Assembly (NCBI RefSeq): GCF_006345805.1
Contig: NC_042999.1
Coordinates: 168,702,001-168,766,000 of the forward strand
Source: Octopus sinensis
Lineage: Eukaryota
Direction of reading: 5' to 3'
Length of the DNA: 64,000 nucleotides
Both the position numbers and the translations under genes were made by a program. Position 1 is the first letter of the stretch; every line of letters begins with the position of its first letter. Positions 3,925-63,669 of this stretch are shown one piece after another. The notes below the pieces were generated by a model. That model was not told the origin of the DNA, did not search any database, and was given only the letters and a program-made list of their open reading frames with translations.

Positions 3925-5030
3925 AAAAAAAACAAACAAACCAAAAGACAGGTGGTGTAGACAACAAACAGATGCATTAGTTTAACGCTTGAGAAGTGAA
4001 CAAGTCTTTAACATTTCGAGCCTACGCTTTTCCACAGAAAGAAACAAGGAGAGAAAATAAAGAATGTGAACTGTGGCTAGCGATCTATCATGGCGAATGC
4101 CGGACAGAAGGGTCACACAGGAGAGCTAGGAAGAAGGGGAGATAATAAAGTAGTGGTGATCCCAAAACGAAGGTGCGCGTGCATGTATATAAGAGAGTAT
4201 GTATGTGAATGTGGAAAAGAGCTTGACGTGTGATTGTGTGTGTATGTGTAGGTGTGAAGATGTGGGGCTGGGAAGTGGTCAGTGCTAGTGTGTGCGTGGT
4301 TGTGTGATGTGATGTGTTGTGTGGTATGGTGGTGTGTGGTGTAGTGTGGTGTGATGGTGGTGCAAGGTGGGAGAGGCGAGAGTGGGAAAGCAAGGGTGGG
4401 ATGCAGGTTAGGCTGAGGGTAGGTATAGAGGTGGGGTATGTGGGTAGGTAGGTGGGGTTAGAGGCAGGGTATGTGGGAGGGGGTGGGGAGGATAGGGAAG
4501 GTGGGGTTGGAATGTGTAGGGGTGGGGTTACAAGGGAGGTGTGACAATGAAAGGGAAGGAGATGGTGGATAGGAGTGAAGAGAAGAGAGAAAGCGAGTAG
4601 GAGTCGGAGCAAGAGAGGAGAGGTGGGAAGGAGTAGGTGTGAGGTGGAGAGGCGAGGGGAGGAGGTTAGATAAAGAGGGGAGGGGAGTTGAGCCCATGTG
4701 GTGCAAAGGAATGAAGAGAGAAGATTAATCTCTGTTCATGGTGCAAACGGGAATTCATATGCCCCTGTGCAAGGACAATCCGAAGTCGGACAGGTGTTGC
4801 AAAGAGTGACTGGTAGAGCAGAAATGACGCAAGACCAGGGTGTCAATGCTAAGTCGGAGGTGTTCCGCGAACCAGTCAACCAAGCAGCGTCTTGTTTGTC
4901 CAATGTATAGAGAAGGGCAGAGAGAGCAGGAGATGCAGTAGATGACATTGGTAGAAGTGCAGGTGAAGGAGTCAGTGATGTGATAGAGTCAATGATGGAT
5001 GCCGTGTTCAATGTTGAGAAAGAAAGCAAA
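3925..5030 (-). mobile_element. Penelope-like element 3' fragment (GIY-YIG plus pseudo-LTR)
   Basis: Minus frame ITDSFTCTSTNVIYCISCSLCPSLYIGQTRRCLVDWFAEHLR at about 4860-4985; low-complexity 3' UTR; degenerate hammerhead at 4005-4042. Confidence 0.8.
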
Positions 5031-10567: not shown

Positions 10568-13145
10568 ATATCTATATATTGGTTTCTTTACATCTCTTAA
10601 ATCTAGCAGTTCAGCAAATGACACCAATAAAATAAGTACCAGACTTCGGAAAATAAGTACTGGGATTGATTTGTTTAGCTAACCCCTTCATGGTCATGAC
10701 CCTCATGGCTGCAGTCGAATGACTGAAACACGATAGAAGATATACTATCTATACTATAATGGAGAAAGCTGCTAATTAATTAGGTATGTGACAATTACTA
10801 AAAGTACTTAAAGAAAGCAATTATTAAAGAGTTGACTGTCTGGAAATATTTCATGTTAAATTCATGTTCAAAGAAATTTTCTATAATTTCGATTTCTCAA
10901 GTTCATTGAATTTTTTAAACTCCAATTTCTCGCAAATTTAAATATTCACTGCGTCCAATTAATCACAAATTTAAATATTCATTGCATTCACTGCAAAGTA
11001 TTCTATTTTCATTTGCGAAGTCTCTCACTTTCTCTTTTAAGTTTTAATTTGCTGTTAATGTATACATAATGTAAAAACATTATTTATTGAATGAAAATTT
11101 TAAAAAAATATCCATATAATTTTTGAGTGTGGGATAGCTGTGAGAAGAGCCTGGAAAATTGGATAATTACTATTAGAAGACGAGAAGAAAAAAAACAAAA
11201 AGTTACTAACAACTGCTTGAAACTTGCATCTTATTCAGTTTCCAAACACAACTTTAACAGTGACACATACACTCGCAAACACATAGATACACATACATGC
11301 AAATGAAAGGCAATGTGTATGTGTGTGTGTGTGTGTGTGTGTATGTGCATGCGTGTGCTGTTCACTGATAAAACTTTGCTGCATCGCGTTTGTGAAGTTT
11401 TGTCACTGAACAGGTCGCAGTTTCAAAGCAACGAAAATATTTTGACACAAATGAATGGTATTTGTGCATTCTTGAATGGTTTTCAAACATCTTCCATGCT
11501 GCAATTGTTTTTGTTTCAGCACATGATCTCAGATCAAGTCTCTTGCTATGCAAAGTACATTCCCGAAATTTTTTTAAAATCACTGTGGATAAAGCCAGCA
11601 ATGACCTTCTCAGGCTCTTCAATATTTTAATTTCTAAACAGAAATAATTGGTGTCAGGGAGTAGGCTTGCAACAAATTCATAATTTCTCACATTTTCTTT
11701 TTTATAGCATATAAATGTATTTATGGGGGGGGGGGGATATTGAAAAACATCAATACATGCGAGAGTGATAAAGGAACAAGGAGGGTTGTCTTTGGGTGTG
11801 TTAGAAACAACAGCCAAATCACCCTTAAATCACTTTTCCCTCTGAAAATATTAATAGCTTAAAAAATTTTTTTTTTACCATAAATGCTCTTCCCATGGTT
11901 TTGAAGAGGAAAAAAATTGGCCTAAATAGGTCCAGAGTGGGATAATGAGGCGGGGAGGGATATAAAAAAGAAGTTTTCAAAATTTTTTTATACAAAGATG
12001 TCCCCCACCCCATCACTTTGAAGGTCGTGGTTTAAAAAATGGGGAAAATCCCCCACAAAATTCTTTTTAATCATAATCTATGCCATTTGAAAGGTATTTG
12101 TATAAATTTTCATCAAAAGGTACCTACCTTCCTGAAAGTTATGAGGGAAAAATGTCAGATCATGTGAATTTTCTGAAATCCTCTCTCCACCCCCTTGCAA
12201 AAATTCTTTCCTATAAATCCCTATAAATTTTGTAAAAAGTATCCATTTTTGTAGGAAATTTAAAATTGTAAAAAAGTATCCATTTTTCTGGATGATATGA
12301 GGCAACAAAGTGGTAGTGGTGGTGGTGGTGGTGGTGGGGCATATACATATAGTAATGCCCTTTTATTTATACAATTTTAAAATTTCATGTTTATTTCATT
12401 CATTGTTTGCCATGTGCTCTCTCTCTCTCTCTCATACACACACACAAAAGAACTGCTGAATTGAAATCTCTATGTTGCTTTGAGGTGAAGGTAAAACACA
12501 ACAAACTGCTTCTCCCTCTGATTTTGGACTACAGTGATGTTTGCTTAAAAAAGAGAGATTATGACTGTTATAAAATAATGAAAGCAATATTTACTAGCAA
12601 GTGAGCACTGTTATACAAAGAAATAATTAGATGTAAAATATTAAAATTATTAGAAATTGGAATCAAATGTGAAAATATTATCAAGGGGCTAGCAGAAAAC
12701 CGACCAGGGGCGAACTTTCTGCTAGTATATATTATGTATGTTTCATATAATGTATACATATTGTACCTTTCTATCTATCTATCTATCTATCTATCTATAT
12801 ATATATATATATATATATATAGATGAGTGTATTTTTACCTTGTTAACAATTAACATGGAAAAATAAATAAATAGTTACCAGGGCAGCAAAATTACACCTG
12901 CATTAACTCCATTTTTTATTCATATATATATATATATATATGTATGTATATATATTCCAAAATGTGACCGAGTGTGTGCCATTGGCGATTTTTTTCCTCT
13001 GTCTTCCCTTCTATGTTTCTGACGAAGAGCTCCGCTCATAACGTAAAACCCTCCTTCTTCCCTTGCATCCAATAATACTATATTTGTTCCACGTCCTCGC
13101 GTTGTTGTGTTTTCTCTTTGTGTTTTCATGTTTGGATTAACTTTA

Positions 13146-17359: not shown

Positions 17360-18500
17360 ATAAACAAGCTATGGAAATAGATATACGAACATTAAGGGAA
17401 GTCAACTGAAATACTAAACCAGACTTAAAAATACTCCCGTACATCTCCACATATAACCTTAGAAGCAACGAAGCTTTCAATATTAGCACCCAAAATATTC
17501 CCATCTTCACAGGAGATAAAACAATGAACAAAATTTTAAGCTCATACAAAATTATCAAAAGCAAAATGCAACCTAAATCACTGAAGAAAATATTAACCAG
17601 CGCAAGACTATATCCATTAACAACAGAATCAAAAGCGAAAAAATGTGGTTGACCTAACTGTGGTACATGCCCCCCCCCCCTTTGGAGGGTTCAGAGTTCC
17701 ACTTTAAACAAGGTGAAATATTTAAGATCAAATCAAATTTCTCCTGTGCCTCGGAAAATCTAATCTATGCCATTACATGTTTAGGGTGTGGTAATAATTA
17801 TATTGGCCAAACAGGAATATCACTCCGTCGAAGAACCACTATCCACAAAGAACAAATCCGCCACCCACAATACAGACAGTTACAGGTCAGTGAACACATA
17901 GAAAGGTGTGATAGGAATCTTAATCCTAATTTCCCCTTTCTATCAATGTTCGCAGAACACCTCAGTACAACAAAGAATGAATAAAGAGGCAACTTTCATC
18001 AATAAATATCTTCCCCAACTCAATATGAACACATAACATAATACAGAACACTACTAACCTTTCAATTAATACCTATTTCTTTATTACCCACAAGGGGCTA
18101 AACAAGGACAGACATAGGTATTAAGTCGATTACATCGACCCCAGTGCGTAACTGGTACTTAATTTATTGACCCCGAAAGGATGAAAGGCAAAGTCGACCT
18201 CGGCGGAATTTGAACTCACAACGTAACACAGACGAAATACCGCTAAGCATTTCGCCCGGCGTGCTAACGTTTCTGCCAGCTCGCCACCTTTCAATTAATA
18301 CCAATAACCCCCATACATCCCATACACAGTACAGATCTATATCTACCCTAATTGCACCAAATCCTGAACTACTTACCTCCCTTACACATAATCTTTTTAC
18401 TCAGTGACTAGTAAAACTGACACAGTTCATTAATTGCTGTGTATTCAAAGCAATGAGTAGTAAATTTACGAAACCCGTATGCTTTTGAATCTCTTTAACA
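17360..18500 (+). mobile_element. Penelope-like element 3' fragment
   Basis: FSCASENLIYAITCLGCGNNYIGQTGISLRRRTTIHKEQIR (GIY-YIG); inverted hammerhead-bearing segment upstream at 16938-17025; SINE inserted at 18070. Confidence 0.82.
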
Positions 18501-20231
18501 ATTCACAATAATGACCTTTATTATTTTTATTCCTACCTCAGTTCAAGTAATTGTGTATATCTATCGTTACTTTTCATAAAAAGCCTTTACCTTTTTTTAC
18601 TTCCAATGTGCATTTTCGCTTGTTTTTCTTCTTACTTTCCCCTTACATTTCCTTGTGTAGTTTCTATTTTCTTTTTGTAACATATTTCTATTACGTATCT
18701 ATATATATATATACATATCTATACATACATATATATACACACTCACATATATATATCATCATCATCGTTTAACGTCCATTTTCCTTGCTAACATGGGTTG
18801 TACGGTTCAACCGGGGTCTGGGAAGCCAGGAGGTTGCACCAGGCTCCAGTCTTGATCTGGCAGAGTTTCTACAGCTGGATGCCCTTCCTAATGCCAACCA
18901 CTCAGTGAGTGTAGTGGGTGCTTTTTATGTGCCATCGGCATAGGGACCAGAGGAGGCTGGCAAACATCCATGATCAGTTGGTGTCTTTTACGTGTCACTG
19001 ACACGGATGCCAGTCAGGCAGCGCTGGTATCAGCCACGCTTGGACAGTGCATTTTACGTGCCACTGGCACGAGTATCATGACTACAATTTTCATGATTTT
19101 TATTTTGATGTTGATGTACTTGACTCAATAGGTCTCCTCAAACACAGCGGGTCACTCTACAATCCAAGGTTACCACAGCAGGCCGTCCGGCGAGCCATGA
19201 ACTGACTTCAGCATATCTCAGATCTCGGTCTTTCATCATTTCCACTGTGAGGCCCAACGTGCCACGGGCACCACAACTACACTATCCATTTGATTTTTAT
19301 TTTGATATTGATGTACTTGACTCAATAGGTTTCCCCAAGCACAGCAGGTCGCCCTACAATCCGAGGTCAGCACAGCAGGCCGTCCTGCGAGCCATGAACT
19401 CACTTCATTTGTCGGGTCTTCGCAGTCACAGCATATTTCCAGAGGTCTCGGTCTTTCGTTCAAAGGTCATGCTTGACCACCTCATCCCATGTCTTCCTGG
19501 GTCTACCTCTATCCCGGATTCCTTCAACACTTTGGGAGTGGCACTTCTTCACACACACACACACATCTCTCTCTCTCTCTCTATATATATATATACATAT
19601 TCCTTTTGGGTTTTTTATTTCTCTCTCTCCATTCTGTCAACACCTCAAATGTAAAATTCCTCCCTGAAGATGGAGGCTGTCATTATCTGTTGATAGAATC
19701 AAGTTACAATCATTAATTTGCACCACCAAGCCCCCAGAAACAGCTGTTGAACTCATAAAACTACCACTCAACCCCTTTAATTCCTGATATCATTTCTATT
19801 CTGTGTAAGTCAGACTTTTTTATATGTACATTTTTTGTATTAAATATATTTAATATTTTTTGTGTGTCGACCAGCCTAAATTGCTTGTCCTTACATTTAC
19901 TCCTCCTCTACCTGCTCAAGTTCAAATTTCTTGAGCACTACAAAGAGTATTCTATACAGAGAATATCTGCCTCTAATCTATATATACACACACATACCTA
20001 TATATACACACATATATAGTCAAATTGAATTAAAACTTGAACAAACATTTGAGCATTAAAAATAACAAACGCACAAACACATGGAACGTATTAGTTTAAC
20101 ACTTAGGAAAGGTGGAAAGAATAGGTTTTGTGATTTACACATATATATTTATACATATATTCATATATATATATAGGAGATGTACTCGCATAGCAAGTAA
20201 TTTGATCTGAGATCGTGTGCTGAAACGAAAA

Positions 20232-20504
20232 CAATTGCAGCGTGGAAGGTGTTTATAAGCCATTTAAGAAACACACAAAAGCCGTTCAATTCACTTCAAC
20301 ATTTAAGTTTAATTTGTCAAAATATTTTCGCCGCTATAAGACCGCGACCTGTTCACTGACAAAAATCCGGATTTTTGTCAGTGAACAGGTCGCGGATTTT
20401 AGCGACGAAAATATTTTGACAAATTAAACTTAAATGTTGAAGTGAATCGAACGGCTTTTGTGTGTTTCTTAAATGGCTTATAAACACCTTCCACGCTGTA
20501 ATTG
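20232..20504. repeat. Foldback palindrome carrying a G3-C8 hammerhead-like motif in each arm
   Basis: Arms of about 136 bp with no spacer (centre aaaaatcc|ggattttt) and a few mismatches. Confidence 0.92.
20374..20423 (+). ncRNA. Minimal type I hammerhead-like motif, G3-C8 variant
   Basis: tttgtca-GTGAACA-g-GTCGC(ggatttta)GCGAC-GAA-AATATT-T-tgacaaa; mirror copy at 20313-20363 on the minus strand. Confidence 0.65.
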
Positions 20505-21317
20505 CATATATATATATTCATACATATACACATATATTTACTATTTTTATCCAAGAATGTTGTTCACAGTGACTTTAAAGTTATGGCCAGCTAAGTCATC
20601 ATCATACTGCAGTCCGATGAAGGCTTAACTTGCCTTAACTTCAAAGTCAGATAAAAACATCCTTTTATGAGAATGATAAATTTGTACTCTATGAAAATAT
20701 AGAATAGCCCATCAGATTAATATAAAATTATTTTTATTATAACTGAACATAAAAACAAACATCAATGTATACATATATATACATCTTGTGTATATGTGTT
20801 TGTGTACATACACACACACACACACATTTGTACTGAAGATTATCCAACTAAAAGGACATAGCTCCAAATATATCAGATCATGATTTCTGGGTACTGACAC
20901 TTTTCAGTCACTTGGATATCAGACTTGTGCAGTTAACCCTTTAGTGCTCAGTTTAATCTGTAAAATTTAATGCTTATTTGCTCATGTTATTCTGAATTAT
21001 TCAGGTTCAAAGGGGGTGTCCAAAATATTTGCTTGTAACTTAGTTAATTTTTTACATGCAGGTTTATAGTTATGTAATTTTAGCTGATCTTGCTGATTGA
21101 ATTTGACTTTTATGGGACGGTAAATTTAATCAACAGGTGTAAAAGCAATAATATTATGGATAAACACTAAAATTGAAATTCTTAATGCATCTTACCTGTT
21201 TGATTTGTAATTAAAATTTGTAATTAAAATTATTCGAAATCAGTGGCAGACGTCACTAGAAAAACTCTTATATATTTGCAAGGCGGCCTTCTCTTTCATC
21301 GTGACCTGGTGGTTACC

Positions 21318-21358
21318 GCCCGTTGACAAGGGACAAAAATCCCGAAACTAGTCCGAGC
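21318..21358 (+). ncRNA. Minimal type I hammerhead motif, U3-A8 variant
   Basis: gcccg-TTGACAA-GGGA(caaaaa)TCCC-GAA-ACTAGT-C-cgagc. Confidence 0.72.
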
Positions 21359-21414
21359 GTATCACTCAGGCTTGCGAGGAAGGGATGGCCTCCCTTTGCA
21401 AATACTTCAAGGGC

Positions 21415-21671
21415 ACTGAAATGGTGTCTAAAGCCAGCTAGAGACGACGATCTCCTGGGGCTATAGAGCTACAGTAACACCCCCTCCCCTATGTGGTTAG
21501 CCATGTTAAGATGGCTTCTATACTTTACATAAAAAATATCTTCACAATATTTTTTATGTAAAGTATAGAAGCCATCTTAACATGGCTAACCACATAGGGG
21601 AGGGGGTGTTACTGTAGCTCTATAGCCCCAGGAGATCGTCGTCTCTAGCTGGCTTTAGACACCATTTCAGT
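21415..21671. repeat. Perfect palindrome, 125-bp arms, 7-nt loop
   Basis: Arms 21415-21539 and 21547-21671 are exact reverse complements by eye; loop cttcaca. Confidence 0.93.
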
Positions 21672-21679
21672 ATTGAGGT

Positions 21680-21990
21680 CGTTTTTGTTCCTCTTCAGCC
21701 AAATTTAGCTGGAAATTCTCTCTGCTGTCTCTGATATTGCCTTTAGGGCTTTTGTCTTGTTCTTCCTAGAGATTAAGATGATAAGCAGATTTAATCACAA
21801 AACTTCTGGCTCCAACCTCTATAGCAACAACCTTGACCTGAAAGTTTGCTTCCCCCAAGATGTTGGTCAGACTGGTGTGTTTTACAGGCTTGAACATATA
21901 TTCTTCTAGTGCACTTTCAAACAGCAACGTGAGTTCAATCAAAATCAGTTGCTTTGATGAACTGGAATGGAATACAATATCTGAACTCAC
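21680..21990 (-). mobile_element. RLE-type (Hero/NeSL-like) LINE endonuclease remnant
   Basis: DIVFHSSSSKQLILIELT...K..K...AIEVGARSF resembles the PD-(D/E)xK restriction-like endonuclease region. Confidence 0.65.
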
Positions 21991-22289
21991 ATCTCCGAAT
22001 CGTGGCCGAAACCAGTGCCGCCTCGACTGGCTTCCGTGCCGGTGGCACGTAAAATGCACCAATCTGACAGTGGCCGATGCCAGCCTTGCCCGGCACCAGT
22101 GCAGGTGGCACGTAAAAAACACCCACTACACTCACGGAGTGGTTGGCGTTAGTAAGGGCATCCAGCTGTAGAAACATTGGCAGATAAGACCGGAGCCTGG
22201 TGCAGCCTTCTGGCTTCCCAGGTCCCCGGTTGAACCGTCCAACCCATGCTAGCATGGAAAACAGACATTAAACGATGATGATGACGATG

Positions 22290-22980
22290 ACACCACCCTT
22301 TCTGGTGATTTCTGTTTGTTTTGTTGATCCTGGAAAGTCTGCTGAGCAATCCCAGTCATTCACACTACTCAGAAGGGTTCATTCTTGTGTCTCGTATGGC
22401 ATGTGTTCCTGGTCATGATTTGCTACCTCCTGCCATGTAAAATGTTGAAAGAGATTCTGGTTCTACTCTTGCCATACTAATTATGTGAACAGTGCCTCCC
22501 AGTGTATCTTCTTTGGGTTAGTTCTACTCTTCCAGGAGCTTAGAACATGTTCCCTTGTCTATCTACTTCAACAGAGTGGGCACACAGGATTATCTGATTT
22601 GCCCTACTTCACTAGGTTCATGTTTGAAAGGAGATCAAAGACAAATCTGAAGATAAAAACTTATTCCAAGAGGTGTCGTTATGCCACAAGTATTTCCAGC
22701 TAAGACGATTCTGGAGTGCACCTTTCTACATCCTCCATTGGCCCTCTTCGTTCTACTGTACATGGCATTCTCTTCCCTTTTCATCTTCTGCAGAATCAGA
22801 TCCCTCCTCAATTCTCTCCTGGCCTCTAACCACCATTGCAGTTCTGTTATGCACAGTCCTTGCCTATTGGCTTCAATATATCCCATTATTTCTCTGATTG
22901 TAAGGCTGCATCCCTCACCTCCTGGATTTTCCATATTTTCCATTTTCTGCCTGTCTTTCGAATCTTCAAGCATGGTTAAG
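22290..22980 (-). mobile_element. Degenerate non-LTR retroelement C-terminal fragment (R4/Dong-like)
   Basis: Broken frames with GGCRKVHSRIVL, a CGK..NPVCPLC-like Zn knuckle and HDTRHKNEP. Confidence 0.45.
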
Positions 22981-23837
22981 AGCCTTGCTTTTCCAATCGA
23001 AATCGATCAATGGAAATTGCAGATGTGTTACCAGTGCCGGTAGCATGTAAGAGAACCTTCTGTTTCGCGACCGTTGCCAGCACCGCCCCGTTTCGTGTCC
23101 GTTGCCAGCCTCGCCTGGCCCTCGTGCCGGTGGCACATAAAAGGCACCATCCGTTCGTGGCCGTTTGCCAGCTCTGTCTGGCACCTGTGCGGGTGGCACG
23201 TAAAAAGCACCCACTACACTCTTGGAGTGGTTGGCGTTAGGAAGGGCATCCAGCCGTAGAAACACTGCCAGATTTGACTGGGCCTGATGAAGCCTTCTGG
23301 CTTCACAGACCCCAGTAGAACCGTCCAACCCATGCTAGCATGGAAAGCGGACGCTAAACGATGATGATGGACTTGAGAGGTAGCTTCAACTTGACCTGAT
23401 ATAGTGCAACATACATACATGACAGCCTGAAAATTAACAGCTTATGTTACAGTCACAGTGCAATAGTAGTTTCAAAACCAGTCATGTCTTCAACGAATAT
23501 TTGAAAAGCTAAGAATAAAATGAGGTTTGAATTCCTTATCTCTGAATCAGTAGATTATCATAAGCACTAAGCCAACATTACTATCAAAATAATACAGTTA
23601 CAACGAAACCCGGTCTGGTACTATCCAGGAATAAGATACCCAATGATGATCAGAAATTAAACAAACTGAAAAATATTAGACATAAATATTACAAAATATT
23701 TTATCTCTGAAGTTGAGGCTAATAGAAAAAGTTATCTTGTTTACAAATTATATTTTCTTTATCACACAAAAATATGAAATTAAAATTATTTCCAGCATCC
23801 CTCTTTCTGCAGAGTGAGAAATTTATAGCAGTAATGG

Positions 23838-25822: not shown

Positions 25823-26665
25823 TCTATATATATAAAAGTGAAGTTGTGGGAGTGTCTGTCCCCTTCGATTTAGATTCCTAACTACTCCCACATTTTGCGG
25901 TGCAGTTTAACCAAATTCGGGTATCTTATAGTCGTGATTCATATCGAGCCCATCTGGGTATTAGCGCGCGTCTACGATGAGTCTACAATTTAAAAAATAA
26001 TTTACCATAATTTTTTTCCATTTTAACGCATATTTTTTTCCCTCCCTCGTGAAGCTGTGGGGAAGGGAGTATAAGGAAATCAACGTCGTAAAGCGTTGTC
26101 AAGGAGACCAGCGTTCTTTTAGAACAACGACCTCATGGCTTGAAGACACCAAAACAGAAATGGCTAAGTAAGCCCGAAAGCAAATTCTACAAAATCGGGA
26201 AACACGCCACACAGGGAAGGTTTCCCGTGCAAATAATTTGCACAACCGAATGTTTTAGTTGTTGCACAAATCTTTATATATAAAATTGAAGTTGTGTGTC
26301 TGTCTCCTACGATTTAGATTCCTAACTACTCCCACATTTTGCGGTGCAGTTTAACCAAAACCGGGTATCTTATAGTCGTGATTCATATCGAGCCCTTCTG
26401 GGTATTAGCACGCGTCTACGATGAGTCTACGATTTAAAAAAAATTTACCATCATTTTTTCCATTTTAATGCATTTTTTCGCTATTATATAAGGGAAGTAA
26501 CTCTCTAAAAATGTCTACGATGAGTCAACGATTTAAAAAAAATTACCATCATTTTTTATTCCATTTTTAATGCATTTTTTTGCTATTTTTGGGCTATAAC
26601 TCTCTAAAAATGCTTATATAGTTATTTCCCTTACAAACCCGAGCAACGCCGGGCGATACTGCTAG
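25823..26665 (+). mobile_element. Non-autonomous Helitron with duplicated 5' end
   Basis: A|TC start, second head at 26271, subterminal hairpin cccgagcaacgccggg and CTAG|T end. Confidence 0.85.
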
Positions 26666-26850
26666 TTAAAATATAAAAATGTTAAAAGGGTTAAGTCTCT
26701 TCCACACCAATTCAATAAAATAAAGATAAGATTTGTTAAAATCAGCTTTGAAGAGCAGAAATAATGTTATCATTCATCATAAAAGTAGTTACTAGCAGTA
26801 ACCTTCAAAGTAAAAGTAGACTAACTTAACATAAATACTTTTATATAAAA

Positions 26851-27413
26851 CTAGCAGTATCGCCCGGCATTGCTCGGGTTTGTAAGGGAAATAACTATAT
26901 AAGTATTTTTAGAGAGTTATAGCCAAAAAATAGCAAAAAAATGCATTAAAAATGGAAAAAAAATTATGGTAAATTTTTTTTTAAATCGTTGACTCATCGT
27001 AGACATTTTCTGTTTTGGTGTCTTCAAGCCATGAAGTCGTTGTTCTAAAAGAACGCTGGTCTCCTTGACAACGCATTACGACGTTGATTTCCTTACACTC
27101 CCTTCCCCACAGCTTCACGAGGGAGGGAAGAAGGGGGAGAAGCAAACAGGTGCAGGTGTGACCATGGACGCCAACTCCGCCGCCATCGACACACGAAAAG
27201 TTATGCATTAAAATGGAATAAGAAATGATGTTAAATTATTTTTAAAATCGTAGACTCATCATAGACGCGCGCTAATACCCAGACGGGCTCGATATGAATC
27301 ACGACTATAAGATACCCGAGTTTGGTTAAACTGCACCGCAAAATGTGGGAGTAGTTAGGAATCTAAATCGAAGGGGACAGACACTCACACAACTACAGTT
27401 TTATATATATAGA
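26851..27413 (-). mobile_element. Non-autonomous Helitron, same family, inverted
   Basis: TC...hairpin...CTAG on the minus strand at an A|T target. Confidence 0.85.
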
Positions 27414-30079: not shown

Positions 30080-32783
30080 TTTTGGTATTGGCAACATGAA
30101 TGACAATGGTCAGAGACTACTTGAATTTTGCACATAACATAACTTGTGCATCACCAACACATTCTTTACCAACAAGACATACCACAAGGCATCTTGGAGA
30201 CATCCAAGATCTCACCACTGCCATCAGCTGGATCTCATCATTACACGAAGATCCTTTCTGAATTCTGTTCAACTGACCCATAGTTACCACAGCGCGGATT
30301 GACACAGATCATTCACTAATAAGAAGCAGGGTGAGGATTCTGCCTAAAAAAGTCCATCACTCTCAGAAAATGGGCTGACCACGTATTAACACTGCCAGAA
30401 CCTCGGACCCTACACTGCGACAATGTTTTGCATTTTCTATCAAGGTTGCCTTCAGTAGCTGCTCAACCTCCTCTGCTGAAAGTAGGGTGGAATTATATCA
30501 GGGAAGCTTTCTATACCACATCAATAGATACTTTCGGCATGAGAGAAAGGCAAAACCCAGATTGGTTCAGTGCTGGGCTCTCAGAGCTAGAAACAGTTAT
30601 CAAAGCAAAGCGTGCAGCTCTGATGCAATACAAGAGTGATTCTTCTACAAAGTCACTCGAAGAACTCAGAAAGGCAAGAAATAAAACCCAACTGACTGCC
30701 AGACGCTGTGCAAATAGGTATTGGCAGGAAATCTGTCAGAGTATCCAGTCAGCTGCTGACAGTGGCGACACATGAGGGATGTATGCCGGTTTGAAGAAGG
30801 CCCTCGGTCCATCCGCAATCAAGTCAGCTCCTCTGGAATCAACTACTGGAGATCTCATCAAGGACCAAAGCAAGCAAATGGATAGATGGGTGGAGTACTA
30901 CCAGGATCTCTACTCACGGGAGACCACGGTAGCTGAGGCTGCAATCGAGGGTGTCAAGATCTTGCCAGTCATGTGCAAACTTGACAGTCTGCCATCTAAA
31001 GCAGAGCTCACCAAGGTTATTGACCCCCTAGCAAGTAACAAGGCTCTGGGAAAAGACGGGCATCCCCTTAGAGATCATCAAAACCGGCAAAAACACCATC
31101 CTGCTTCGGCACCTTCATGAGCTTCTGTGTCAGTACTGGAAAGAGGGTACAGTCCCTCAGGATATACGGGATGCAAACATCATTACGCTTTACAAAAACA
31201 AAGGTGACCATGGTGATTGTAACAATTACCGTGGAATATCTCTTCTAAGCACTGTTGGAAAGATCTCTGCTCGCGTTATCCTGTCCAGGTTACAACTGCT
31301 TGCTTCTCGAATTTATCCAGAATCGCAGTGTGGCTTTAGAAGCAAATCAACTATTGACATGATATTCTCCATACGCCAACTTCAGGAGAAGTCCAGAGAG
31401 CAGAAAATGCCATTATATATGGCCTTCATTGATCTGACAAAGGCCTTTGACTTGGTAAGTAGAAAAGGCCTCTTCATCCTGCTCTAAAAAATCGGATGTC
31501 CACCAAAGCTGCTGAGGATCATCAAATCTTTCCATGATGATATGCAAGGCACCATACAGCACAATGGTTCAACATCAGCCGCCTTCCAAATAAAAAATGG
31601 GGTAAAGCAAGGTTGTGTCCTTGCTCCTACATTATTTGGCATCGTCTTCTCGCTGCTGCTGTCACATGCCTTTGAGACAGCAGATGATGGAGTGTTTCTG
31701 CACAGTAGCAGTGATGGGAAACTGTTCAATCTCTCGCGTCTGCATGCCAAGACCAAAATCAGAAGCGTCCTGATCAAGGAGAAGCTATTTGCTGATGATG
31801 CCGCTCTGGTATCACACACAGAAGAAGCCCTACAAAGGTTCTTCAACTGTTTTGAGCAAGCATGTGGCAACTTTGGCTTAGTTATCAGCTTCAAGAATAT
31901 CAACATCATGGGTCAGGCTACATCGGACATCCCAAACATACATATTGGAGACCACAGACTACAGGAGGTGGAGAAGTTTACCTATCTTGGCTCTGCCGTC
32001 ACCTACAACCTATCCCTTGACGCTGAGCTCAATATACGCATTGGCAAGGCAGCTGCTGCGATGGCCCAACTCTCCAAACGGGCATGGGACAACAATAAAC
32101 TGACCAAGACCACAAAAATGAAGATTTACTAGGCATGTGCACTTAGCACTCTACTGTATGGAAGTGAGACTTGGACGCTATACACACGCCAAGAGCGTCG
32201 CCTAAATATCTTTCACCTGCGCTGCCTCCAGAAAATCCTTCGCATCAAATGGCAGAATCATGTCCCCAACAAAGATGTCCTCAAGCAAGCAGGAATACCA
32301 AGCATGTTTGCACTCTTCACACAAAGACATATGAGATGGCTTGGACATGTTAGCCGTATGGAAGATGGCAGAATCCCCAAGAATACTCAACGGAAAGCTT
32401 GCTAGGGGCACTAGGTCTGTGGGAAGACCGTTCTTACGTTGCAAGGATGTTTGCAAAAGGGACATGAAGGCCTCCAACATCAATATTAGCAAGTGGGAAG
32501 CAGTTGCCAGCAACCGTGGAGATTGGCGACGTACCGTAAAAGAGGGAACACAAAGGATGACATAGAGAGAGAGGAGAAATGGAAAGACAAGAAACTATGG
32601 CATTACAACCAGCCAGGCAAAGTCTTCGCTACATTTGCGGCACCTGCCAGAGGGAGTGTTTGTCCAGGATAGGATTACACAGCCACAGCAGGAGATTTAT
32701 TAGGACATGAAATGTAAAAGCTGGACTAGATTATTTTATGCGCAACTCCAAAGTCTCCCGAGACAAAAAGGATGCCAACAACA
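30080..32783 (+). mobile_element. RTE-clade LINE, 5'-truncated and degenerate
   Basis: APE remnant (ASWRHPRSHH..QLDLI, TDHS); RT motifs NYRGISLLS, GVKQGCVLAPTLF, LFADD, FTYLGS; frameshifts and stops; caacaacaa tail. Confidence 0.92.
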
Positions 32784-35568: not shown

Positions 35569-35805
35569 TACAAGTAATAAGAGAGAGACCACATGTAGTC
35601 ACTCTAACGCTAGAAATAGATCCGCAAAGGGAATCCACCACTAAAGAATTATTCTCAAGCATTAATTCAACATGCCAAGAATGCCCGCTTACATTCCTGG
35701 CGTGTTGAATTAATGCTTGAGAACAATTCTTTAGTGGTGGATTCCCTTTGTGGATCTATTTCTAGCGTTAGAGTGACCACATGTGGTATCTCTCTTATTA
35801 CTTGT
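35569..35805. repeat. Imperfect foldback, arms of about 115 bp, 8-nt spacer
   Basis: tacaagtaataagagaga...gaatg(cccgctta)cattc...tctctcttattacttgta. Confidence 0.88.
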
Positions 35806-35824
35806 AAATATATATATATATATA

Positions 35825-36149
35825 TATAAAATATTATTAGAGACAAAACCACTATTTTGCAAAACAAACAAGGAAAGACTTAATCAATACATAAAATTTT
35901 AATAAATAGTCAAAAAAACCGCCACTACAATCGTTTCTTGTCTTGATCGACAATCTTCAGGTGGACTTCCAATAAGTCAGTTTCATAATTTGAAACTGAC
36001 TTATTGGAAGTCCACCTGAAGATTGTCGATCAAGACAAGAAACGATTGTAGTGGCGGTTTTTTTGACTATTATTAAAATTTATGTATTGATTAAGTCTTT
36101 CCTTGTTTGTTTTGCAAAATAGTGGTTTTGTCTCTAATAATATTTTATA
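35825..36149. repeat. Near-perfect palindrome (arms of about 160 bp) with a canonical hammerhead in each arm
   Basis: Centre gtcagtttca(taatt)tgaaactgac; only small indels between the arms. Confidence 0.93.
36012..36054 (+). ncRNA. Minimal type I hammerhead ribozyme
   Basis: CCAC-CTGAAGA-TTGTC(gatcaa)GACAA-GAA-ACGATTGT-A-GTGG; identical copy at 35922-35964 on the minus strand. Confidence 0.8.
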
Positions 36150-46673: not shown

Positions 46674-49034
46674 TCTCTTATGATAAACGGCAGATTTTCT
46701 CTGCCTCCCAAACCGTTCGTTTTTTATACAATTGTACAATATAGAATTTCTTCAATTGGAATTTACCTATCATTTTTCCAAGTAGATTCCATTGGGTCAT
46801 GGCATGTAAAGTTTTTTCAATTTCACCCCCAATTAAGCAAAAATTCGAGAAAACTCAATATTTTACGATTTCCCTCTTTCATTTCAAGTGCTTCACTCCT
46901 ACCATTACCACTACACTTTCTCCTCCTTTCTCTTTGCAAGTGTGCAGCAATTAAAGTGAAAGTATTTATATAAAAGGGATGAGCAATTAATACTGGTCAT
47001 CCTTTTTGCTAGAGGAAGATCCGCTATTGTCTTATATGCTACACCACTGGTTTTCAATTCATATTAATCAAATTAATATTCAATATTTCACCCTTATTGT
47101 GTGTGTGTGTGTGTATTAGCAATTCGTATAAAATTGCATCAATGACTTGAACTTGAATAAGTGGTTTCACATAAATGGGGATACATTAAAAAGGTTTGTT
47201 ATTATTATTACTGTTTGACTATTGTAATCACGTTTGTTGGTTCCTCGTCAGGGAAACGTTGTTGTGTTGCATTTGTTAAATAATTGTAAACCGTAACCCT
47301 CCCCCTTTCGGAGAAGGGGCTTTGGTTATTGTTTTAAAATTGAATTGTGTCCCTGTTTGGGGAAATTGACAATATTTTCACCGTCTTTACGGAAGCATTT
47401 TTGTTAAAATGCCTTCGATAGAAGAAAGTCCAAAAATGAATTTCGCTGCAGCCGTACACTTCTATACAAGATCCAATTGATCGAAATTGCAAGAGACTGG
47501 CCTACAATTCCAGTCTGTTATATATTTTGAGTATTGTTATCACTAGCGATATCAAGATATAACTTTCTATTTTGTATTTTATGTGTAGATGTATATATAT
47601 ATAGATGTACATGTAATATGTACACATATATATATATATACACATATATACATGCATAATATATCTACCCATACGCACACACGTACACACACACACATAC
47701 ATAGGGGCAGGTGTGGCTGTGTGGTAACAAACTACGTTCGAAGATACTGTACTTGATATGGGTGGTAGTGCCTTGCCGGTCTATGGCCTACCTTCAACAA
47801 ACCGGGAAGGCACAAACACTCTGTCTTCACATTTGCTGCGTGAGACATGTTTTAATGTTGACAAGCTTGCCGAGTACATAGCCGACAATGAGCCAAAGCT
47901 CCTTCCAGAACAGAAGTTCGCTTACAACTCCGTTGTTAATTTAGTCCGGGACAAAGCTAGGGGAATTTTTTTCCTGGACGCTCCTGGGGGTACTGGGAAA
48001 ACTTTTCTCAACAAATTAATATTGGCTGAGATTAGGCGAACACAAGGCATTGCCCTAGCTGTGGCATTATCTGGAATTGCGGCTACTTTGTTGCCAGGCG
48101 GCAGGACAGCTCACTCCACTTTCAAGCTTCCGCTTGACTTAGCGAAGACTGAGGCACCAACTTGCAACATCAGTAACAGCTCCGATCAGGCAGAAGTCTT
48201 CAGACGATGCAAGCTTATTGTTTGGGATGAATGCACGATGGCCCACAGAGGTGCTCTTGAGGCACTAGATAGATCTCTCAGAGACATCAAACACTCTTCA
48301 GCTCCCATGGGAGGCATAACACTTCTTCTTTCAGGGAACTTCCGACAAACACTTCCCGTTATTCCCAAAGGGACTAGAACTGATGCAGTAAGTGCGTGTC
48401 TTAAGTCATCCACATTGTGGCCACTGGTGAAGACTCTCAAACTTCACACCAATATGTGTGCTCATATGCGACGTAATATCACATCAGCAGCATTTTCACA
48501 CACCCTCCTTGCACTTGGCGAAGGCAAAATACCAGGGGATGAAAATGGTAATATTGCCATCGATTCCATTTGTACCATTGTTAAAACGCCTTATGATCTC
48601 AGAGATGCAGTGTTCCCAGATCTACAAGCTAATTATCAGAATATGGATTGGATTGGCCAAAGGGCTATTCTGGCCCCGAGGAATAAAACTGTTCACCATA
48701 TTAATGATTCCAGGGGATGTCTATGTATATAGGTCTATCGATACAACTCCTGACCCAGAGGACGTCATCAACTATCCAATAGAGGTATTCAATTCCTTTG
48801 AGCCCACCGGACTACCACCACACTTTCTCAAACTTAAAGTTGGTGCCCCTATAATGCTCATCAGAAATTTGGTTCCCCCAAAACAATGCAATGGCACACG
48901 TTTGATCGTTAAGTCCTTATCTCCCACCGTAAACTTATATCAATATTTGCCTGAATAATCATCATAATTCAGTGCAATCATTAACAGTACTTTCAAGCAA
49001 TTCAGCCCCGAGCATCGTCGGGCAATTCTGCTAG
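46674..49034 (+). mobile_element. Deleted Helitron with Pif1 helicase remnant
   Basis: A|TCTCTTATGATAAACGGC 5' end (less certain); helicase at 47735-48930; hairpin cccgagcatcgtcggg and CTAG|T 3' end. Confidence 0.75.
47758..48930 (+). pseudogene. Helitron Pif1 (SF1B) helicase, frameshifted and truncated
   Basis: FFLDAPGGTGKT, IVWDECTM, GNFRQTLPV, RAILAPRN, then in a shifted frame LPPHFLKLKVGAPIMLIRNL..QCNGTRL. Confidence 0.92.
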
Positions 49035-49551: not shown

Positions 49552-50249
49552 AATATATATATATATATGTATAAATTTATGCTAATACATAAATGCTAAG
49601 AATTGCGATGCAATTAATTCATTTATTGTATTATATAGGCGAAGGTAAAATGTTTTACCTCAAATTCATAATACAAAATAAGAAAATAGAGGAATACACT
49701 TTAATCAATCATCAACTACAAGATAATACCCATTCACATAATTTATTAACCAACTACATTGGAACATCAAGATCAAACACAATAATACAGAACAAAACAG
49801 TACACATCAATGAGTAATATGATACCATAAGTACCATACGTATAAATAAATATAAATATAAACTATATCTTACAGCTGTTTCGGCCATGTAGATAGGACT
49901 ATCTCATTATGCTCATATTAGCCAGGTGTGTTAAGGTAATATGTGGTTATAAATGAGATACTTACATATATATCCCAAGGCCTCTTCTGAGATTATAAAG
50001 TACAGTTCAAATATGAATATTAGAGAAGGTACACATATACAAGAATAAGTACATATACATAATATACACATACACATAAGTGTATATACACATGCACCTA
50101 CATATATATAAGTATATACATAATAATATACATACATATAAGGTTACAGTTAGTCAAATCAATATATTAGAATATACATACATACACACATCCACATGAA
50201 AGTGTACATATACAAAGTCCAGAGTTCATTGTATTAAGTTACAAAAGGC

Positions 50250-50304
<55 letters not shown>

Positions 50305-50451
50305 AATAATAATAATAACACCAGTAAAAGAATATGTGCATTCCACCATTCACAATACATAGTAGATGATAACAACTGCAGCATTTCTATAGTCAGGGAT
50401 ATTGCCGGCGATAGTACAATTAATAATAATAACAATAATAGGAATAGTATA

Positions 50452-51630
50452 GTGGTCAGTGCTAACAATAATATTAACAGCAATCATAACAATAAAAACT
50501 CCGTCTTAGTCTCGGTGGCAAACCCTAACAGATTAAAGTTTTTGTCCAGTAATTCCAAAATTAGAAATTCCATTTACCAGTGTAAAATTTCTTCTGGTAC
50601 CAGTGTCTTATTCTATATTGGGGCGACTACTTCTAAATTATCCCAGAGGATTTCCAATCATTATTCAACTTTCCGAGATAAGAGAAAGCAACAAAGTACA
50701 GGACTAAGTAAATTAGTTTGGTGTCTTAAGGACAGCAATATAACTTTCAAGCTGGAATGGTCCATATTGTCTGTATCCTTTCCGTTTGATAAGGGCAGAA
50801 AATTTTGTGGCGTCTGTAATTCCGAGCTTTTCCATATACTTTTCGCCAAATTCCCTTTGGTAAACACAATGGTAGAAAAATCCTATAGGTGCTTGCACTG
50901 GCAGAAACACACCTTCCACTCATATGAATGATGATTAATATAGATAACCTCCTTGAATTTAATAATTTGGTTCCACTTCTACAACACCACCATAGACAAA
51001 TTTTTATACTCCGTTTCTTGAAGGACTACTACCAAATTCGTTGGGGCATGTTTTACCTTTGTCTCTCTACCTCTCCCCCTCTCTCTCTCTCCCTCTCTCT
51101 ATCATAAGCACAATCAAACACACAGACACAAACCTGTCACTTCACCACTAGTTGTATTTGGCATTTATCCCCCCACACACACAATCACGCACACACATAC
51201 ATACACATAGACACGAATGCAGTTATATACATACACACACATAGGCACTCAATCTCATTAGCAAAAGCAAACAACAACACATCACCATACATACGACTTG
51301 CACCCTGTCACCTTCCTATTCTTAGAACTCTCCCCTTCCAACCTTTTTTGAACTCTTGAACTTTCTAGAATCTTCTCCATTCAACCAATTTTGACGTCAC
51401 TGCTTATAACGGAATATTTTAAAGAAACACTCAGTATCACTATGGACTCCGTGTGGGCAGTCATCTAAAAGTTTTTGTTCGTCATGATACTGACACAAGT
51501 TCCTTGTCTTTCCTGATGAGAAGGCGGCATAATGCACCCCTTATTCCTTCGGAATTAGAAATATGCAGTCTTCGAAACATATGTCGAGAATAAAGGAATT
51601 TTGTTAAATCGTCGTTCAACTCCATTTTTT
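50452..51630 (+). mobile_element. Penelope-like element 3' fragment (GIY-YIG plus pseudo-LTR hammerhead)
   Basis: SIYQCKI...FYIGATTSKLSQRISNHYSTFR...STGLSKLVW..K...W.IL...CGVCNSE; hammerhead at 51509-51589; inverted hammerhead segment upstream at 49867-49993. Confidence 0.85.
51509..51589 (+). ncRNA. Type I hammerhead ribozyme with intact core and extended stem II
   Basis: tttc-CTGATGA-GAAGGCGGCATA...TATGCAGTCTTC-GAA-ACATATGT-C-gaga; predicted GUC cleavage after 51585. Confidence 0.82.
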
Positions 51631-54900: not shown

Positions 54901-55510
54901 ATTATTGTAGAAGTAATAATAAACCAAGTTAAAAACCATTAAAAGAATCAGGTAAAGGTAATAAACCTCATAAAGGAATCATAAATCCCATGAAAATAAA
55001 TCCAATGAAAATACTGGTTAGTTACCAATCTAAAGAAAGTTCAACTATAAGGTAACCATATAAACCGTGATTCATATATTTATATATTTAAAGAATAAGG
55101 AGAAAATGGAGAGGTAATTAATAAAATTATTTATTAATTATAAAATATGACAACATCTCTGACAACTGTTTTGATTCAGAAATCTTTATAAGCCTTTATC
55201 TCAAAATGTATTTCTAATCAGTATATCTTTACTACCTCTGAAGAGATTCATCTTATAATGATTTTATTTTTATAAATTAATTATCTAAAGATTTCTGAAA
55301 CAAAACAGTTGTCAGAGATGTCATATTTTATAATTAATAAATAATTTTATTAGACACCTCTCTATTTTCTCCTTATTCTTTAAATATATAAATATATGAA
55401 TCACGGTTTATATGGTTACCTTATAGTTGAACTTTCTTTAGATGGTAACTAACCAGTATTTTCATTGGATTTCTGATCCTTTGATGAAGTTTATTACCTT
55501 TACTTGATTT
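52000..55510 (-). mobile_element. Near full-length degenerate Penelope-like element with inverted pseudo-LTR
   Basis: N-terminus SLKDVPTPPRNIYIKELISKMNDFTCRLRWKTFYF (54593-54886); RT GGLYRDE at about 53420; GIY-YIG-like CDCRIKSNC...YKGSTRNEIKKRLASH (52271-52513); inverted repeat 54947-55509; Helitron 5' fragment inserted at 53632. Confidence 0.8.
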
Positions 55511-57767: not shown

Positions 57768-58615
57768 CGCCATGTTGATTCGCTAGCCTCTGCACACATT
57801 TTTTTTCTCTCCTTGTTTCTTTCTGTGTTTCTTTTCTGTGTATCTTTCTGTTGAAGAGCGTCGGCTCGAAACGTAAAAGACTTGTTTTATTTATATTCCT
57901 GAGCGCCATACTAATACAATTGTTTGTTTGTACTCCACCTGCCTTCGTCTTTTGTTTATTTTTCATAAAGCTTCCCGTTATATAAAAATATATATATGCA
58001 ACAAGAAATATTTGTCTCTTTTTATAGAAACAAATTTAATGTTGACCCAAACTTAATGTTTAATGCTTATATATATATATATATATATATATATAGATAG
58101 ATAGATAGATAGATAGATAAATAGATATATATATATATACTTTTACTTGTTTCAGTCATTTGAATGCGGCCATGCTGGAGCACCGCGTTTAGTCGAGCAA
58201 ATCAACCCCAGGACTTATTCTTTGAAAGCCTAGTACTTATTCTATCAGTGTCTTTTGTCAAACCACTAAGTTACGGGGATGTAAACACACTAGCATCGGT
58301 TGCCAAGCGATGTTGGGGACAAACACAGACACAGAAACACACACACACACAGACTCACGCACGCGCGCGCGTGCACACACACATATTGCAATTAATCAAA
58401 GAACATACTAAGTATGTCTACCTGCTGGAAATAACAGTCAAATCTCTTATTTAAATCGCCAAAATACGAGTTTTGAGTGTTATTTCCAGCAGGTAGACAT
58501 ACTTAGTTTGTCCTTTGATTAATTTTAATCCTTCAGTTATTTAATGCTTTTTGGGGGGCATGCAATCGCAAATTATTTATTCGTGAATTATTTTTCTTGC
58601 GAATTAATTGCTCTG

Positions 58616-61146: not shown

Positions 61147-62169
61147 CTAATAAATGTTTGTTTGAGTGATTGTGGAGGGTAAATTGGAGTCCTCACGTAC
61201 ATCCGGGTAGACTGCGTTATCCTTACAACAACGAGAGCACATGCAACAGGAGAAATTCTTTTTTAGCTGACGTAAGAACCCGTCCAAGTGTCCTGAGTAT
61301 ATGATGACATTCATGAAACTGTTGCTGTTTGCCAACCAAGCCACTGTGAATTCAACTTCTTCGGGTACATCTGTAAACACATTAAAGGCCTTCAAGTAGG
61401 CAATTAGTGTATAAGGACCCCAGGCAGCAATGTAACATATTGTGCTTATTTTTAGCATCCTGATAGCTTTCAAATCTCTGGAACATTTTACCTGTCCTCG
61501 GCGATTAGTTTTCGCTTGTTGAATTGCTAGAAGGGCCTTTGAAACTTTGTACGAAGAAAAAAAGATTACGGCAGCACTTAAAATAGGAATATAGAGACCT
61601 GTAGCAATGCAAAAAATTACTGATTTCCACTTCATTCCACACATAACGATAGTCTCTTGATATCCGTAATATTTTGAATCGAAAATATGTGGGGAAAGAA
61701 AAGTTATCAAAGAAAACAACCAAACTGCTATCAAAATGCCAATTGAATAGTACATCTTTTTAGCGTTTCGATATCGGACTGGGAAGTTAATAGCGATATA
61801 TCTGTCTAAACTAACGATAGCTAAGCACCAAATCGATACTGTACACGTGATGCCATGCAAAATACATGACACTGTGCAATATGTAGTACCTAATAACCAC
61901 CTGTCACAGGCGGAAGCTAAGACAGCAGGCAAACAAACAAAGAAACCATTTATAAAATCAGCAACGCTCAAATTAATGAGAAGAACCTTTCCTAAGGTCT
62001 GAAGTTCCCTGACTTTTCTAAGAATCCACATGTTAATAATGTTGCTAAAAATAATGGCTACAGTGATGAGTCCAAGCAATATTGTACGCAAAATGACTAT
62101 AGTTCCTGAATGACGGATTAGTTTGTCTTCTGTCCGATTCTGCAGCGAAAAATTGGCATACATCCTCAT
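61147..62169 (-). CDS. Intronless class A (rhodopsin-like) GPCR, 340 aa, orphan
   Basis: Seven hydrophobic segments; NLSVADF (TM2), W..G...C, SLDRYIAI, WGPY (TM6), NSFMNVIIY (TM7); N-terminal NFS and NRT glycosylation sites; C-terminal Cys cluster; uninterrupted ORF. Confidence 0.93.
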   Translation of the reverse strand: MRMYANFSLQNRTEDKLIRHSGTIVILRTILLGLITVAIIFSNIINMWILRKVRELQTLGKVLLINLSVADFINGFFVCLPAVLASACDRWLLGTTYCTVSCILHGITCTVSIWCLAIVSLDRYIAINFPVRYRNAKKMYYSIGILIAVWLFSLITFLSPHIFDSKYYGYQETIVMCGMKWKSVIFCIATGLYIPILSAAVIFFSSYKVSKALLAIQQAKTNRRGQVKCSRDLKAIRMLKISTICYIAAWGPYTLIAYLKAFNVFTDVPEEVEFTVAWLANSNSFMNVIIYSGHLDGFLRQLKKNFSCCMCSRCCKDNAVYPDVREDSNLPSTITQTNIY

Positions 62170-63669
62170 TTTCTTTACAAATTAGAAATTAAGTAAATTC
62201 TGGTTTATTTTAAAAAATATTTTTCGATAAGTGTGAGTGTAATAAATTAAAATCACAAAATATTGCAATTGCAGTGAACTTCTTAAATGGAAAACATGCG
62301 TCTTTCCTTCCTTTTCTTCTCTTTCTTTCCTTCTTGAAATGTTTTTGCATTTGCTTCTGCTTCCAACCTTAGGTATGTGAGCTTTTATTCTTTCTTTATC
62401 GAAAATATTCCGTCATTTTCTTCTTTGTAATAAATTTCTGGAAGAGAAATATAATGAAGAATAAGTTATGAAATTTATAAAATGCAATCAGTACTACAGT
62501 ACTCAGCGAAAATATACTTTTTTTCATTTTTACAAAATAAAATTTAATTTCAGACATCCCTTGATAAGTGAGAAGTAGGCTGTCCCCTTTGTGTTATGGC
62601 CTAGGTAATAAAGAATTACAGTCGGCGAGGTATTTTTGTTGATTTTTTAATCATTTTTGATCCCGGTTAGACGTGAGTCGCATTGTTATATAGTTGTTGA
62701 AGGTCTCCCCGCGCAAGGTGCCCCCAGAAAGGAAATAAAGGTGAAGAGGAACAGAAGCAACATACTACCGAACAAGAGCAGAGTGCCGAAGTGGCGGTAC
62801 TAGAAGGTGAGAAGAACACGGAGGGAGCAGAGGAAGCATTCAAGTGAGAGGTGGGCTGTTCCACTGTTGATAAATGGTGGACGGACACAGCAAGCAGTAC
62901 CAGTCGGTGAGGTACGCCGTTCGAGTCAGTCACGCAGACAACGAAGTTACGTCGTCATAATGCGGAACATATAACTTGAATAAATGTATTTAGTTCTGAT
63001 TCTATTTCAAAGCAGTAAAGGAATACCTAATAATATTTATAACTGTCAAGATATATCCTAATTCAAACATAACTATGCTTTTCCACTGGATATTTCTTTA
63101 AAACTTCCTTACATCCATGACTTATTTGGAGTTTGAATTACTTATCTACTTACTCTTTTATTGAGGGAACGTCTCATAAAACCTTTTCTACTTATATTTT
63201 CAAATAACCGTTAGTTATTATGATGCTCGTAATTTGCATAAGGATAAATATGGATATCCGAAAATATTCTCTGTTATTTCCTGTATCAAGTCCTCTGGGA
63301 TGATAATTTTTTGTTTATACTTTTTGCACTGAGGAGAACAGTGATATATAATTAATTTAATTTAATCAAATTAATTTAATTATTCTACTATGAATTCGCA
63401 TGTTTTAATATCGTTGTTTGAAACGATCGTATGCATGTATTAAAATTCTTTCAAATTTTAACATCTTCTCTTCTCCATTTTTAACAAAATTGTTGGTTCT
63501 ATGGGATACCTTTCCACAAATTCACATAACACACTATATACAAATATTATTTTCATATTTGCAAACTTATGCCAGTAAGTTACCAGCAAAATATGAAGAA
63601 TTTCTATTAGAAATCGTTTTTTGGAACCCTCCAAATTAAAAGACGAAATATAATTCAACCTTTTCACTC

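Follow-up and report, generated by a model that had tools for sequence, protein, structure and literature searches.

Minimal type I hammerhead ribozymes have been described in Penelope-like elements (PLEs; Cervera and de la Pena 2014, PMC4209133). The 56 motifs aligned in Fig. S3 of that study contain C3-G8, U3-A8 and, in one case, U3-G8 pairs, and none contains G3-C8. The U3-A8 pair represents a natural covariation at positions 3 and 8 (Perreault 2011, PMC3088659) and is also present in the Cercyon PLEs of Schistosoma (PMC4209133). The swapped pair is known from engineered ribozymes, in which the C3G/G8C double mutant partly rescues cleavage, as reported for the Anolis Poseidon hammerhead (PMC11167929), in a deep scan (PMC9901934) and in a review (PMC8495972). 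Here we describe a 64,000-nucleotide stretch of the Octopus sinensis genome (NC_042999.1, positions 168,702,001 to 168,766,000 of the forward strand; "the window" denotes this stretch at its full length). It contains a palindrome of two head-to-head 5′ ends of a Penelope-like retroelement, each with a hammerhead motif of the G3-C8 type, GUGAACA. A sequence-only reading of the stretch had drawn attention to this core, to the rescue by the double swap, which the first two engineering reports bear out, and to its supposed rarity in nature.

The two arms of the palindrome (20232-20368 and 20369-20504, in window coordinates) are 95.6% identical and adjoin with zero spacer (blastn within the window, E 2e-59); the mirror noticed in the sequence-only reading is thus real. 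The right-arm motif (20374-20423, + strand), found by descriptor scan and folding, comprises a 7-bp stem I (20374-20380/20417-20423), the core GUGAACA (20381-20387) followed by an extra G (20388), a 5-bp stem II (GTCGC 20389-20393/GCGAC 20402-20406), GAA (20407-20409), the palindrome AATATT (20410-20415) and U17 (20416), after which cleavage is predicted. The left-arm motif spans 20313-20363 of the − strand, with its core at 20356-20350, cleavage predicted to fall between 20320 and 20319, and one wobble in stem II (GTCGC/GCGGC). The type I anatomy claimed for both arms, including the UUU site, is recovered in the sequence. A descriptor scan of both window strands that allowed the four possible 3:8 pairs gave 10 loose matches, and a 7-bp stem I together with a 5-bp stem II (12 pairs) occurs in these two arms only. 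The core does not read as the literal consensus C3 U G A N G8 A. The remaining consensus positions (U4 G5 A6, A9, G12 A13 A14, A15.1-U16.1, H17 and G10.1-C11.1) agree, positions 3 and 8 form a Watson-Crick pair, and two traits of PLE minimal hammerheads are present: an additional base that separates position 9 from 10.1 (G 20388) and a palindromic stem III (AATATT). The motif is classed as a hammerhead variant outside the literal consensus. An Rfam scan of 18000-23000 returned 40 matches at E<=10, to hairpin miRNA models, and none to a hammerhead.

The swapped pair is the state of the whole family to which the arms belong (family A). Exact 20-mers were counted in the genome over four patterns, with reversed controls giving 0. 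G3-C8 accounts for 5,567 of the 6,126 matches, the family consensus having been set beforehand as one point on which the claim could have fallen. The 559 copies changed at position 3 or 8 consist of 194 with G3-G8, 148 with G3 and A8 or U8 (26 A8 and 74 U8 among 100 listed, hence about 38 and about 110 overall), and 217 with a non-G at position 3 and any base at 7 and 8 (57 A, 25 U and 18 C among 100 listed, with no C3-G8). Variation per column was taken from 127 arms picked independently of the 20-mer patterns; it averages 0.195 in loop II vs 0.005-0.049 in the stems and core. The idea that G3-G8 marks one ancestral subfamily is unsupported, because this form is found in all three loop-II types. 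Among the variant rows listed, four sequencing runs, which bear four organism labels, also have contigs with the G3-C8 form in loose ends.

Copies of the arm are dispersed through the 2.7-Gb genome, with 193 candidates by arm query, of which 40 were scored, and 21,872 candidates by translated query. In ten of our numbered loci (L061, L062, L093-L096, L106, L111, L203 and L213), a frame encoding a reverse transcriptase (RT) and a GIY-YIG endonuclease (EN) ends 0.9-1.1 kb upstream of the motif on the same strand; in L093 it is open over 1,042 amino acids. L203 is near-complete, with a motif, an ATG 92 nt after G3, 608 amino acids, a frameshift, 475 amino acids and a second motif. The hammerhead thus sits in the pseudo-long terminal repeats (pLTRs) that flank the RT-EN open reading frame (ORF), and both pLTR copies are present in L203. 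The protein has the YVDD motif, a CX3CxxC linker and the cysteines and histidines of the GIY-YIG domain (CCHH). Pfam PF01541 is matched at E 0.0016 (under the cut-off) in family A and at 1.5e-6 in the related family C, and the Atlas neighbours of the protein are RVT_1/HTH_animal/GIY-YIG. An RT followed by a zinc (Zn) linker (CX2-5CxxC) and then GIY-YIG is the anatomy of Neptune and Nematis PLEs (Craig 2021, PMC8557442). The traits of endonuclease-bearing (EN+) PLEs are all present: pLTR, inverted 5′ copy, one-sided tail and microsatellite target. The element is identified on these features as an EN+ Penelope-like retroelement, of Neptune/Nematis type by domain anatomy, our tree containing no named references. 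By continuity with the longer copies, the window arms correspond to its 5′ end plus the first ORF codons. We also considered a coding overlap as the cause of the swap, since a 68-codon frame without a Pfam match crosses the motif in some copies. This was rejected because an in-frame stop precedes the real ORF, whose start lies 92 nt after G3.

Related families carry the same fold with other pairs at 3:8. Two of them, B and C, are sister families from this genome, in which the motif likewise follows the endonuclease. Family B, whose RT is 55-58% identical to that of family A, has the core CUGAUGC (C3-G8), the extra G and a 6-bp stem II, 0.4-0.6 kb behind the endonuclease. Family C has UUGAAAA (U3-A8), the extra G, a stem II of GUUGC/GCAAC and the palindrome AAUU; its U3-A8 pair occurs in all 19 motifs, found in 18 of 30 loci. 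Two more distant relatives from metagenomes (~45% identity) carry U3-A8 (L355) and C3-G8 (L356) ~100 nt behind the stop; 13 such loci were fetched, several of them too short or without a motif, and no clear hammerhead motif was found behind L359-L362. All five related families share G10.1-C11.1, the extra G after position 9 and a compensated stem II, four of the five have a palindromic stem III, and G5, A6 and G12-A14 are invariant across them. Position 3:8 is thus kept paired through three Watson-Crick pairs (G-C, C-G and U-A), which together with the covariation in stem II indicates that the hammerhead fold is genuine. Family A is sister to B and C with good support and the outgroups carry U3-A8 and C3-G8; this tree leaves the ancestral pair and the direction of the swap unfixed.

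Some further motifs were seen in these loci. The L356 motif (~4745-4800) combines C3-G8 with U15.1-A16.1 and the palindrome UAGCUA. In L108, the canonical motif that lies 1.1 kb beyond the ORF of family C was considered as the motif of that family and set aside as a separate insertion, the family's own being U3-A8. U3-A8 motifs without the extra base occur in four copies, three of them in tandem, at 6900-7900 of L214, and another type occurs in L063.

No natural G3-C8 hammerhead was found in the literature searched, which left out Lunse 2017, Przybilski and Hammann 2007, Martick and Scott 2006, Arkhipova 2017 and supplement file 1 of PMC4209133, any of which may hold one. With its absence from the 56 aligned PLE motifs, the pair appears to be rare in nature, as the sequence-only reading had supposed. 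In IMG/VR, a tight G3-C8 pattern gave 14 matches, and a single one adopts the complete fold (15 pairs). More than 126 matches came from the canonical pattern, with 72 of 80 examined folding, and a G3-G8 mismatch control gave 27, two of them folding at the lowest threshold. The G3-C8 match that folds is a full type I motif with stems of 5, 5 and 10 bp on a viral contig, L224 (IMGVR_UViG_3300019776_000919, 98395-98549).

The family A motif resembles the PLE hammerheads of Cervera and de la Pena (PMC4209133) in its pLTR site just before the ORF, the U-rich 5′ flank, the extra base between 9 and 10.1, the G10.1-C11.1 pair, the palindromic stem III, the closely placed opposite-strand pairs, and the predicted dimer activity. 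In contrast to these, its core is G3-C8 and its stem I is long (7 bp). The natural U3-A8 hammerheads (PMC3088659, PMC4209133) show the same kind of covariation at 3:8, whereas in family A purine and pyrimidine swap places and C occupies the general-acid position 8. The engineered C3G/G8C mutant (PMC11167929, PMC9901934, PMC8495972) has the same pair, which in family A is natural and fixed in thousands of copies.

The whole insertion in the window is wider than the 20232-20504 extent first read from the sequence: the arms are as described, and a 56-nt tail on the left arm only (20176-20231, − strand) extends it to 20176-20504. The left arm (20176-20368, −) is a long form with a 9-nt loop II and runs to the family's distal end, at ~+207 relative to the inferred RNA start. 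The right arm (20369-20504, +) is a short form with the young 8-nt loop II and ends at the proximal end, ~+146. They meet at a CG dinucleotide (20368-20369) that both could have templated, judging from the family's upstream bases, which suggests a 2-bp microhomology. The left arm includes the first 29 codons of the RT-endonuclease ORF (20176-20263, −; starting MAYKHL), which L114 and L203 continue into the 608-residue frame, and the right arm includes the ATG and first codons (20473-20504, +). The target is (TA)n on both sides (20163-20175 and 20506-20517).

This geometry recurs in the family. Mapping succeeded for 55 of 60 loci picked by pattern (two pairs entering from both sides), and 29 of the 55 have an inverted partner, with varying spacers, the remainder being solo. 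A short and a tailed arm are combined in 22 of the 29 inverted pairs, and the 3′ ends form two clusters separated by 61 nt (~+146 and ~+207). At the 5′ end, 54 of 55 copies start within 16 nt, 24 of them at the first base of the pattern, which is partly an alignment artefact at an indel. Among distinct copies beginning AGATG, 30 of 44 are preceded by a G at a position where the element reads C or T (12 of 15 in the pattern-picked loci). Arms of different loop-II classes are joined in 6 of 31 pairs, including the pair in the window (14 expected if random; 3 identical); two RNAs therefore served as templates for at least some of the pairs. The element shares with EN+ PLEs (PMC8557442) and with Poseidon PAc (Frangieh 2024, PMC11167929) the RT-Zn-linker-GIY-YIG order, pLTRs, the inverted 5′ copy, the tail at one end, (TA)n targets and two internal RT start sites, although its tail is 56-61 nt long vs 30-40 published (PMC11167929). 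The clustering of the 3′ ends agrees with what is shown for the Anolis element, which nicks and extends both strands and whose tail lies between the two internal start sites (PMC11167929). A single shared 5′ start with an untemplated G and pairs from two subfamilies were not met in the parts covered of the Poseidon PAc and EN+ PLE papers (PMC11167929, PMC8557442), and an untemplated G was not reported for Penelope elements in the literature searched. The mirror is likely a side effect of the inverted manner in which the element ordinarily inserts, and the additional G is likely a copied RNA cap.

In folding calculations, the single right arm forms stem I with pair probabilities of 0.67-1.0 and stem II with 1.0, and both stems also form in the L203 motif; stem II of the left arm reaches only 0.19. 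The palindrome AATATT proposed as stem III is present, but stem III does not form in the monomer: one molecule allows at most 2 bp, and the 6-bp stem is possible only between two. A transcript across the window palindrome is predicted to adopt a 137-bp hairpin (-219.6 kcal/mol) in which the stems of the motif have a probability of ~0. Because this hairpin would bury the ribozyme, the palindrome at this locus is likely inert. Of the mirrored hammerhead that had been claimed, the palindrome stands; the ribozyme within it is predicted to be buried, and the mirror would be the inverted insertion of a pLTR motif.

Taken together, we think it probable that the locus consists of head-to-head Penelope-like 5′ ends, each with a family-wide G3-C8 hammerhead that would cleave after U17, likely slowly and only when the AAUAUU palindromes of two motifs pair. 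The family A motif is, judged by its sequence, likely a natural self-cutting variant that behaves as a dimer-type minimal hammerhead. Cleavage would act outside the window palindrome, either in transcripts with a tandem pLTR-ORF-pLTR arrangement or together with the protein of the element. A number of observations speak against such activity. UUU is a weaker cleavage site, and the double-hammerhead dimer, at -28.8 kcal/mol, lies 3.9 above the predicted minimum, an alternative dimer at -32.7. The extra base is G vs H in the published PLE consensus, one listed PLE motif having G (PMC4209133). PLE minimal hammerheads cleave weakly, and insertion in vitro does not need hammerhead cleavage (PMC4209133, PMC11167929). 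An alternative, which we consider unlikely, is that the fold was retained for a non-catalytic task, RNA dimerization through the palindrome or protein binding, and that the family A core is a weak or dead relic whose G3-C8 pair became fixed with the source element. Of all core columns, position 8 varies most (G in 15 of 126 arms), and G3-G8 exceeds both U8 and A8 in the genome-wide counts and is present in all three loop-II types and in ORF-bearing copies. Copies do not pile up at the predicted cut: a non-T stands immediately before it in only 122 copies, about the level of point mutation relative to the G3-C8 20-mer count, and with so few copies starting there, the copied RNA templates were uncut. 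PLE hammerhead mutants insert normally in vitro (PMC11167929), and sister cores deviate in other ways (A9C in family B and L355; U15.1-A16.1 in L356). Against a relic, each of the five related families has one of three Watson-Crick pairs at 3:8, a contact important for the active fold, and the invariance of G5, A6 and G12-A14 holds across the same families; the G3-G8 excess could itself arise if RNAs that escape cutting are copied more often.

In the probable account of a self-cutting pLTR motif, capped element RNA would start 22 nt before G3. On two RNAs, RT would begin internally at the two sites (~+146 and ~+207), with both nicked strands of the (TA)n target as primers. It would continue to the 5′ end of the RNA and there often copy the cap, which would add the extra G. 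The two cDNAs would then join, in the window at the CG overlap, giving a mirror with a one-sided tail. The bases upstream of the AGATG start fit an initiator and a 3′ splice site alike, and the additional G could instead stem from a short spliced exon or a micro-foldback, both of which count against the cap. More tentatively, and with less than even chances, an active natural G3-C8 hammerhead may lie at the extreme 5′ end of a capped Penelope-like RNA, with its sisters swapped through three 3:8 pairs; the "truncated" inverted copies would then be complete, made by run-off from two capped RNAs that form a dimer, possibly via the palindrome of the hammerhead, and that are copied simultaneously from the two nicked strands. 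That the palindrome itself is the functional unit, as a two-strand ribozyme switch or a hairpin RNA gene, is very improbable. It would suit the absence of a spacer and the 96% symmetry, but the inverted copies in the sample have varying spacers and the rest are solo, each strand has one sense motif behind its own complement with its own stems predicted at a probability of ~0, and the window holds many unrelated inverted repeats. A chance look-alike in a foldback DNA transposon (a miniature inverted-repeat transposable element, MITE) could have been suspected from the MITE-like inverted arms and the lack of an Rfam hammerhead match. It is scarcely credible and is refuted by the continuity with the RT-GIY-YIG ORF and by the covarying motifs that sister families carry in the corresponding position.

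Elsewhere in the window, ~11340-11570 is an older, decayed inverted family A copy, whose + arm has C3 with C8 and whose − arm retains G3-C8. A second inverted pair (35825-36149), beside (TA)n, has a canonical C3-G8 type I motif in each arm (cores 36016 + and 35960 −); this motif is also present in L096, and the pair likely represents another Penelope-like family. A frame at 50200-50931 has a GIY-YIG-like C-terminus (Pfam E 0.003) and is followed at 51513-51590 by a CUGAUGA motif of the canonical kind, whose loop II is long, and then by (TA)n. Further long inverted repeats, including 21415-21671, 26532-26984, 35569-35806, 55028-55443 and 58385-58529, gave no hammerhead motif in the descriptor scan. 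Pfam frames comprise a Tc1-like transposase (628-1320), a LINE RT fragment (31032-32132), a PIF1-like, Helitron-like helicase (47728-48958) and an intronless rhodopsin-family GPCR (61147-62181).

If the family A motif cleaves, a swap known from engineered mutants would be a natural solution, and searches of the CUGANGA type would miss whole ribozyme families, with thousands of copies in one genome. The three related families with C-G, U-A and G-C at 3:8 offer a natural series bearing on the role of the hammerhead in Penelope elements, which is open in the literature as far as the sources covered go. With a common start bearing an extra G and pairs of mixed subfamilies, the origin of inverted Penelope insertions becomes directly testable.
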